Below are positions 59,977-60,104 of a stretch of 64,000 nt of DNA, piece by piece. The first letter of the stretch is position 1, and every line of letters begins with the position of its first letter. A program made the translations under genes and the position numbers. This DNA is from an uncultured Saprospiraceae bacterium (GTDB taxonomy: Bacteria > Bacteroidota > Bacteroidia > Chitinophagales > Saprospiraceae): NCBI GenBank assembly GCA_964525915.1, contig CAZGKN010000002.1, positions 1,194-65,193 on the forward strand. The letters run 5' to 3'. The notes under the pieces were generated by a model. It was not told the DNA's origin. It saw nothing but the letters and a program-made list of their open reading frames with translations, and ran no database searches.

Positions 59977-60104
59977 GAACGAGGTAGAAAAGGTCTTTGA
60001 ATAGACCTTTTCAACGAAGTGAAACGAAACGAAGGTTCATCCTGATAAGGTGAACCAAAGTGGAGTCAGAAAACTCTTGAGGCACGAAAGAGTGCTTCTG
60101 CGGT
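59977..60104 (+). other. 128-nt structured insertion inside the YNG|KE motif of cassette 3
   Basis: Absent from the homologous position in cassette 1. GGT is present at both junctions (59974-76 and 60102-04). Three stem-loops at 59988-60011, 60034-60056 and 60079-60098. Removing 59977-60104 restores one continuous frame. Confidence 0.65.

Follow-up and report, generated by a model that had tools for sequence, protein, structure and literature searches.

The right end of the 64-kb window analyzed here (the whole stretch of 64,000 nt, from an uncultured Saprospiraceae bacterium) is occupied by a cluster (island) of orphan C-terminal Rhs cassettes, and a small gene presumed to confer immunity follows each of them. 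The third of these cassettes is interrupted between NNYLYNG and KELH of its Rhs core by a 128-nt insertion (59977-60104), hereafter X3, which belongs to a family of small insertion elements rich in hairpins, family X, found so far mostly inside Rhs toxin genes. The upstream flank of X3, ...AAT AAC TAT CTT TAT AAT GGT, has its last base at 59976, the insert starts with GAACGAGG and ends with CTTCTGCGGT (3' end CTGCGGT), and the core resumes at 60105 in another frame with AAG GAG CTA CAT GAC TGG (KELHDW). Because GGT stands at both junctions, the boundary can be slid by up to 3 nt, and 59974-60101 is equally valid. The codon after the upstream GGU is GAA, and the first of three in-frame stops, a TGA, is codon 8; with its frameshift and these stops, X3 leaves cassette 3 untranslatable from its Rhs-core part. 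Removal of the 128 nt in silico produced a single open frame (59830-60872) that runs through the toxin domain and reads ...NNYLYNGKELHDWSGLNWTDYGARWY..., and the spliced product matched TIGR03696 (Rhs_assc_core) across the junction with 56.2 bits (cutoff, 32.5 bits; cassettes 1 and 2 score 46.2 and 51.8 bits, respectively). The original prediction for this locus, which described a clean insertion bounded by GGT, closed by an early stop and restoring the frame when deleted, is therefore borne out by direct reading of the sequence.

Comparison with orthologous cassettes, proposed together with that prediction, gave the same picture. Empty YLYNG/KE sites were found in close relatives, at locus L037 (TACAATGGT/AAGGAGCTACA) and at locus L033 (AACGGT/AAGGAGCAT). 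In the window itself, the motif AAYAAYTAYYTNTAYAAYGG occurs only twice, at 56600 in cassette 1, where the site is uninterrupted, and at 59956 in cassette 3. Among ~115 related Rhs cores, 15-23 residues (18 in nearly all of them) separate YLYNGKE from YGARWY, and 18-25 residues, mostly 21 or 22, separate YYxFG from YLYNGKE. Only cassette 1 has 42 additional residues in the latter interval, because it carries a further copy of X. In the source population, X3 was present in 10 of 10 metagenome contigs and was 100% identical over the insert.

This further copy, X1, is full length (125 nt) and lies directly 3' of HYYSFG (GGT at 56429-56431), 44 nt upstream of the cassette 1 stretch that had served as the uninterrupted reference in the original prediction; the YLYNG/KE site of that cassette is indeed intact, but X1 had been missed. 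A decayed copy, X', occupies the YYxFG site of cassette 3; over 59796-59913, its covariance score is 22.5 bits (E = 0.001). The overlapping contig L003 adds two copies shortly beyond the end of the window, namely, X4, the 5' half of a copy at YYSFG that is split by an unrelated MITE (miniature inverted-repeat transposable element), and X5, the 3' two-thirds of a copy whose site is probably near a DHLG glycine. A full copy, X6 (L033:2683-~2806), was found in the metagenome-assembled genome of Flavobacteriales bacterium GCA_026936045.1, where it follows HHPEG-GGT in a Rhs core with empty YYxFG and YLYNG sites. Finally, L039:7534-7605(-) is a copy with an internal deletion in which the two termini are retained (GGTGCGAAGCAGAAAAG...CTTTTCAACGAAGTGAACC-GCTTGCGG); it is intergenic, ~450 nt upstream of another Rhs orphan (49.9 bits with covariance model [CM] R2). 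In the same place (L039:7540-7715, minus strand), two tandem hairpin modules each follow CATGAACG and end in CGCGG or TGCGG; the second is this shortened X copy, and ATCCTGAAAGGTGAA is common to the first module and to the P3 region of X3, which hints at a modular repeat family resembling bacterial interspersed mosaic elements (BIMEs).

None of the copies found is more than 68% identical to X3, and the copies are 54-68% identical to each other. In total, five independent X sites were found with CM R1 or R2 in ~157 kb of Rhs-bearing loci. No further copies were detected elsewhere in the 64-kb window. Orthologous contigs were fetched with the presumed immunity gene 3' of cassette 3 (60853..61587) as the query. 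Of eight further Rhs loci fetched (L034-L041), only L039 holds a copy, a truncated one, and CM scans of L034-L038, L040, and L041 found X absent, including from the large, near-full-length Rhs genes of L037 and L038.

This distribution bears on the idea that X arose by intragenic duplication or misaligned recombination of Rhs coding sequence between similar motifs (Y-x-F/N-G, then x-E-x-x-x-W). The YYxFG-LEIDGxW and YLYNG-KEHHNW sites are alike at the protein level, and all copies but one lie in Rhs DNA, as such an origin would have it. However, relatives lack X at all these sites, X is also found in intergenic DNA and at HPEG, a site unrelated to the others, its exact ends show that no adjoining coding sequence was duplicated with it, and its peptide is unconserved while its nucleotide fold is conserved. 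The empty sites and the intergenic copy largely refute a duplication, which we regard as highly improbable.

Despite their divergence, the X copies share a common fold of four helices, P1 to P4. P1 encloses P2 and joins GU, from the invariant 5' GGU, to the AC in GAAAC, as well as RC to GY. P2 is a hairpin of consensus RAAAGnnnn/nnnnCUUUUC; P3 keeps its pairing with a completely different sequence in every copy; and P4 follows the consensus GUCWRAAnACnnnn[GAGGYACGA]nnnnGUGCUUYWGC, then GG. In an alignment of six distinct copies that had been fitted to the model, 90.1% of the cells were paired, versus 36-50% with partners slid by 1-3 columns, and double-sided changes affected 25 of 37 pairs, versus 5-7 when slid; none of 500 shuffles reached the observed pairing and covariation values. 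The three hairpins originally predicted for X3 are present (RNA fold z = -4.1 to -4.9). The third, gaggcac/gtgcttc, is the minimum-free-energy choice for X3 alone, but covariation across the copies favors the longer P4, GUCAGAAAACUCUU/AAGAGUGCUUCUGC, which places the GAGGCAC arm in a conserved loop.

Watson-Crick pairs dominate the fold (36 of 37 pairs in X6, with no G-U; 35 plus one G-U in X3), and the two strands fold about equally well. Both properties would suit folded DNA at least as well as RNA. In addition, the unpaired blocks GAAACGGA and AAGUGGAGUC and the loop GAGGYACGA are strongly conserved between copies, and G[C/T]AG directly 5' of P2 is conserved in five of five copies, with no equivalent motif evident before P4.

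The termini of X read 5'-GGTGARC...GCTTnnGCGG-3', with an invariant 5' GGTGA. As had been noted from X3, there are no terminal inverted repeats (TIRs) and the outer hairpins are subterminal: P2 starts 10-13 nt from the 5' end and P4 ends 3-4 nt from the 3' end. GG stands on both sides with no longer target duplication. All copies with a preserved 5' end have the same 5' GGT, which participates in P1, whereas the 3' GGN varies (GGC, GGT, GGA, or GGG) as the host Gly codon does in relatives and thus behaves like a host codon. X is therefore most simply described as 5'-GGTGARC...CTTnnGC-3' located directly before GG, that is, as an element flanked by a 2-nt GG repeat. In Rhs genes, the insertion sites are glycines of the most conserved core motifs, namely, HPEG, YxFG, and YNG. 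The 5' flanks are AAT, TTT, GAA, and AGT, or (A/T)GGT if the GGT is assigned to the host, and the junctions share GG(T) only, a direct repeat of 2-3 nt that is indistinguishable from element-internal bases.

The reading frames of the copies offer a way to distinguish between modes of action. Exact removal of X3 restores the frame, but any clean insertion would behave in this way, and X1 is the more telling copy. X1 is in frame and free of stops inside an intact 437-aa open reading frame (ORF), of which many assemblies have an identical version; it spans 126 nt when the count runs to the next codon and is read through as 42 aa (EQGRK...ECASAA). Its 3' flank is GGC-A-GAGATC, compared with GGN-ATG-GAGATC or GGA-CTA-GAAATC in relatives, and this loss of 2 nt (125 - 2 = 123) brings X1 into frame. 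Removing X1 at the boundaries homologous to those of X3 (125 nt) created a frameshift and stops, so that removal at homologous boundaries restores the frame in X3 only; at the profile level, removal of X1 extends the TIGR03696 match of cassette 1 to the full profile (positions 1-76). X' has the same register as X1 and is likewise open, its frame continuing into the coding sequence downstream. The YYxFG-site copy is thus predicted to be translated rather than excised or hopped over. The reading frames of X1 and X6 differ over conserved nucleotide blocks, and the X-encoded peptide is not a conserved protein segment. The frame of X6 itself cannot be judged because L033 contains several frameshifts, a single A in a homopolymer run being decisive. 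The Rhs gene of L033:1-3200 aligns to the L037 Rhs protein in pieces (frames 3, 2, 3, 1, and 2); it is a pseudogene, or else the assembly contains many indel errors.

These observations weigh on the proposal that X is excised or skipped at the RNA level, as a tiny self-excising, intron-like ribozyme or by translational bypass, which would leave cassette 3 functional. Several features of X3 fit such a proposal: it sits in sense at a highly conserved motif between Gly codons (GGU...GGU), its removal restores the frame exactly, its 5' junction is inside helix P1, and the flanks of cassette 3 can pair (UCUUUAU with GUAAGGA). Moreover, the lengths of X3 and apparently X6 are not multiples of 3 and their structures are nevertheless intact. 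Programmed ribosomal bypassing in phage T4 gene 60 and in the 'byp' elements of Magnusiomyces likewise involves a structured, non-coding gap in an ORF whose take-off and landing codons match and specify Gly (GGU/GGU in X3), and the mitochondrial byps of Magnusiomyces are themselves mobile hairpin elements. However, the X3 gap is 128 nt compared with 27-55 nt in gene 60 and byps, and no stop directly follows its take-off codon. X1, unlike bypass elements, is read through, and a hop from its GGU to the landing codon GGC would bring the ribosome into the wrong frame, one with stops. That X1 is in frame, and by way of a 2-nt deletion shared with X', argues against both splicing and bypass. Furthermore, there is no Rfam ribozyme or intron match, the pairs are almost all Watson-Crick with both strands folding equally well, and one copy (L039) is intergenic on the opposite strand; at 125 nt, X is also far smaller than known self-splicing introns. 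The RNA-level excision or bypass that the original prediction had listed last is disfavored accordingly, and we consider it very unlikely.

The copies also form a gradient of decay. The helices of X3 and X6 are essentially perfect, whereas six pairs are broken in X1, most of them in P3; X4 and X5 are truncated copies, and in X' the fold is gone (22.5 bits versus about 130) with the reading frame kept. Older copies drop the fold and keep an open frame; after insertion, selection thus acts on the reading frame of the host rather than on the fold, which apparently benefits the propagation of the element itself instead of the gene. This is of importance for a second alternative, namely, that the host selects X as a cis element of its Rhs loci, either a structured DNA or RNA signal that would promote or mark the exchange of C-terminal toxin cassettes or a signal for mRNA processing or stability ahead of the toxin-coding part. 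Such a role is suggested by the clustering of copies within the Rhs core, shortly before the toxin boundary and all of them in sense, by the Rhs homology of orphan cassettes 3 and 4, which starts inside an X copy (X' and X5, respectively), and by the strong conservation of unpaired blocks between copies that elsewhere reach no more than 59-68% identity. Against it, X is missing from seven of the eight further loci and, as an in-frame insert, from ~115 related cores, the in-situ copies X1 and X' decay while the frame is kept, copies at 59-68% identity would be poor substrates for homologous recombination, and the island has no recombinase gene. A cis element of this kind is, on balance, rather unlikely.

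The reading that we favor, with modest confidence, is that X is a non-autonomous mobile element and X3 a comparatively young, disruptive insertion in the silent orphan cassette 3. It is best supported by the homologous copies at different positions, the empty sites, and the deletion derivative that keeps both termini, from which we infer mobility as such. X3 would have inserted cleanly at the Gly codon of the YLYNG/KE motif. The P1-P4 fold would be needed by the element for its own propagation, with folded single-stranded X DNA being recognized by an enzyme acting in trans, in the way of hairpin-dependent HUH/Y1 transposases. The subterminal hairpins without TIRs, the junction repeat of at most 2-3 nt, the G[C/T]AG motif, and the Watson-Crick pairing point toward such Y1/HUH enzymes. 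Older copies would be fossils, the one at the YYxFG site having been made readable by the 2-nt deletion to become the present 42-residue insertion in cassette 1. The original prediction had also considered X3 as a silencing insertion; loss of expression is a likely consequence of its frameshift and stops, but there is no evidence of regulation or reversibility, all 10 contigs being identical.

Known hairpin elements provide partial parallels. Like X, the palindrome-associated transposable elements (PATEs) of IS200/IS605 and the REP (repetitive extragenic palindromic) sequences and BIMEs of REP-associated tyrosine transposases (RAYTs; Y1 HUH enzymes) lack TIRs, carry subterminal hairpins near both ends, and show at most a 2-3-nt junction repeat, and the all-Watson-Crick pairing of X is as expected of DNA hairpins. 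In IS200/IS605, the foot of each hairpin is preceded on its 5' side by a guide tetranucleotide that interacts with the sites of cleavage (PMC6006769), and the G[C/T]AG directly 5' of the first hairpin of X is reminiscent of GT[AG]G, the guide at the base of hairpins in REPs (PMC6006769, PMC3733652); REPs have also been described within genes (PMC3733652). In contrast to these systems, no cognate TnpA or RAYT was seen for X, its two end hairpins differ from each other, no target of 4-5 nt is evident beyond GG(T), and its whole 125 nt are structured, including a middle hairpin. X copies are few, divergent (54-68% identity), and concentrated in Rhs-core coding DNA, whereas PATE and REP copies are numerous, alike, and extragenic. 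The tiny mobile element of the original prediction thus stands in its general form, but its assignment to IS200/IS605 is unproven, because no transposase was seen, the end hairpins are unlike, no 4-5-nt target is evident, and the copies are few, divergent, and undispersed.

Rickettsia palindromic elements (RPEs) offer a different parallel. They are selfish, palindromic hairpin repeats that lie within ORFs and are translated as an extra peptide, as is X1, and they have a similar size of ~100-150 bp. Unlike X, however, RPEs are inserted in frame and are spread over many unrelated genes, whereas X3 (128 nt) and probably X6 are not in frame, X1 is apparently so only secondarily, and X is concentrated in one gene family; sequence and host phylum are also unrelated. 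By analogy, X would be a small hairpin insertion element that works like an RPE in the case of X1 and possibly like a PATE or REP in its mobility.

Several results nevertheless weigh against a mobile element. No transposase or other mobilizing gene was identified, the 10 ORFs near the cassettes being without a transposase domain; no copy more than 68% identical to X3, and hence no recent source copy, was found; and no empty-site allele appeared in the source population, where all 10 contigs are identical. Moreover, four of the five independent sites fall in Rhs-core coding DNA, which by our estimate makes up ~5% of the ~157 kb scanned, at conserved Gly codons and in sense orientation. Such a concentration at glycines of the Rhs core is unexpected for a generic transposon and typical of homing elements; local hopping, spread together with Rhs segments, or an unrecognized target preference could possibly account for it. 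The conserved unpaired blocks also fit a functional RNA. X could alternatively represent a new class of small structured elements for polymorphic-toxin genes, either an excised or bypassed RNA, which would keep interrupted Rhs cassettes conditionally expressible, or a folded-DNA recombination signal that would home to conserved Gly codons in the Rhs core and drive the turnover of cassettes. Either version could possibly apply to the intact X3 and X6, only the old X1 being clearly read through, but we regard this as decidedly unlikely.

Searches for relatives of X were largely negative. A scan of genome contigs with GAGGNACGANNNNGTGCTTCNGCGG gave two unrelated matches (Rhizobiaceae and Pseudomonadales), presumed to be due to chance and uninspected, and a scan of metagenome contigs with AGGNAGNAAAG-N12-16-CTTTTC-N8-GAAAC gave 20 loci, none of them X-like on inspection. 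Both patterns were derived from copies of this one locus and would miss X6, so that these negatives are no proof that X is rare, which also counts against the favored reading. Two scans of viral contigs gave no matches, and blastn against plasmids gave one spurious 35-nt match. At the protein level, an exhaustive search with the X1 peptide against 1.84 billion protein representatives retrieved only the source protein itself, a profile of X-encoded peptides gave no candidates, and the 90% identity clusters contained no X-less variants. Rfam returned nothing credible, whether the whole window was searched at the gathering threshold or X1, X3, and X6 at E <= 10, and most full-text literature searches found nothing on structured elements in Rhs genes; on these grounds, family X appears to be undescribed so far. 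As for established classes, integron attC sites, inteins, diversity-generating retroelements, group I and II introns, and known ribozymes were rejected as identities for X, as was a classical MITE with TIRs and target-site duplication, a real element of this kind nearby behaving differently.

Table 1. Copies of X, their structural parts, and the surrounding Rhs cassette features in the window
Feature	Position	Strand	Support or remark
Cassette 1 ORF, 437 aa: Rhs-core end and toxin domain with HExxH	56105..57418	+	
X1, full-length copy in cassette 1, 125 nt	56432..56556	+	CM 128.8 bits
Uninterrupted YLYNG/KE site of cassette 1	56600..56632	+	AATAACTATCTTTACAATGGC/AAGGAACTCCAC
Cassette 2	58198-59124		
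Cassette 3, upstream part, open frame	59830..59976	+	ends ...TRSKDTWDNTTDAIKNNYLYNG
X', decayed copy at the cassette 3 YYxFG site, 3' part credible	59871..59913	+	
X3 5' domain, P1 enclosing P2	59975..60025	+	RNAalifold, covariation; R2 72.7 bits
X3 P1 pairings	59975-59976 with 60024-60025; 59979-59980 with 60019-60020		
X3, insertion copy	59977..60104	+	CM R1 136.9 bits, E = 1e-31; empty sites in L037 and L033
X3 P2 hairpin	59987-60012	+	arms AGAAAAGGUCU/AGACCUUUUC
X3 P3 hairpin, GGUUCAU.../...GUGAACC	60034..60056	+	helix 6: 6/7 pairs altered on both sides
X3 P4 long hairpin, conserved loop GAGGCACGA	60065..60101	+	helix 7: 8/13 pairs altered on both sides
X3 tail GG(T), after P4	60102-60104	+	
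Cassette 3, downstream part: Rhs-core end and toxin domain	60105..60872	+	begins KELHDWSGLNWTDYGARWY...
Presumed immunity gene 3' of cassette 3	60853..61587	+	

The features of the island are listed in Table 1. Gene callers start the downstream part of cassette 3 at an ATG at 60162. The toxin domain of cassette 1 has no Pfam match and contains an HExxH motif (TAHEFMHSYQH), which suggests a candidate zinc metallopeptidase. A fourth, degenerate Rhs cassette (...EVVTGYIPTVRTGGGLWNRQEINGEIIPYKLLQRNHYYSFG) with the X remnants X5 and X4 lies past the window end at L003:13160-13700, corresponding to about window positions 64012-64552, and no full-length Rhs gene adjoins the island. Cassettes 2 and 4 are preceded by an 80-nt 'leader' (window 58100-58190 and 63930-64010) that is ~70% identical by eye, with the pattern CTCATAT..TTTTTTT.ATT.CCAT.AATCC..GCA.TCC.CCAA..TCC.TA.CTTAGC, too weak for BLAST; it may be a cassette-boundary mark or a promoter. 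Gene calls in the cassette 2 region (~58200-59500) are 260 and 98 aa in L005, 247 aa in L010, and 300 and 115 aa in L003. These differences among strains indicate that the population is not fully clonal, though the insert in cassette 3 is identical everywhere.

Three small toxin-antitoxin-like pairs with Pfam matches to a ParE/YoeB-type toxin and DUF2683 are interspersed among the Rhs cassettes on the minus strand (55475-55962, 61931-62452, and 63236-63705), and a PIN-domain protein (PF13470, E = 8e-18; 49052-49471, minus strand) upstream of the island is probably another toxin of a toxin-antitoxin system. The MITE-like repeat is separate from X, measures ~180-260 bp, and is present at window 53466-53645 and at L003:13393-13652 (about window 64245-64504, just past the window end), with the two copies being 83% identical. 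The copy past the window end, which splits X4, is bounded by inverted ends (GTAACaACTCAgC...GGTGAGTAGTTAC) and comes with a duplication of 8 bp (GAAAAGTC).

With the covariance model from this analysis, X can be surveyed systematically. Should action at the RNA level prove true, X would be an unusually small excision or bypass element. The copies described here form a natural series that leads from a fresh insertion (X3) through a frame-restored copy of 42 aa (X1) to a decayed coding remnant (X'), and this series shows selfish hairpin DNA becoming protein sequence outside Rickettsia. Rhs and other polymorphic toxins diversify by swaps of their C-terminal cassettes. If the favored reading is true, an insertion element that prefers the conserved core shortly before the toxin would add a new participant to the silencing, pseudogenization, or reshuffling of such arsenals.
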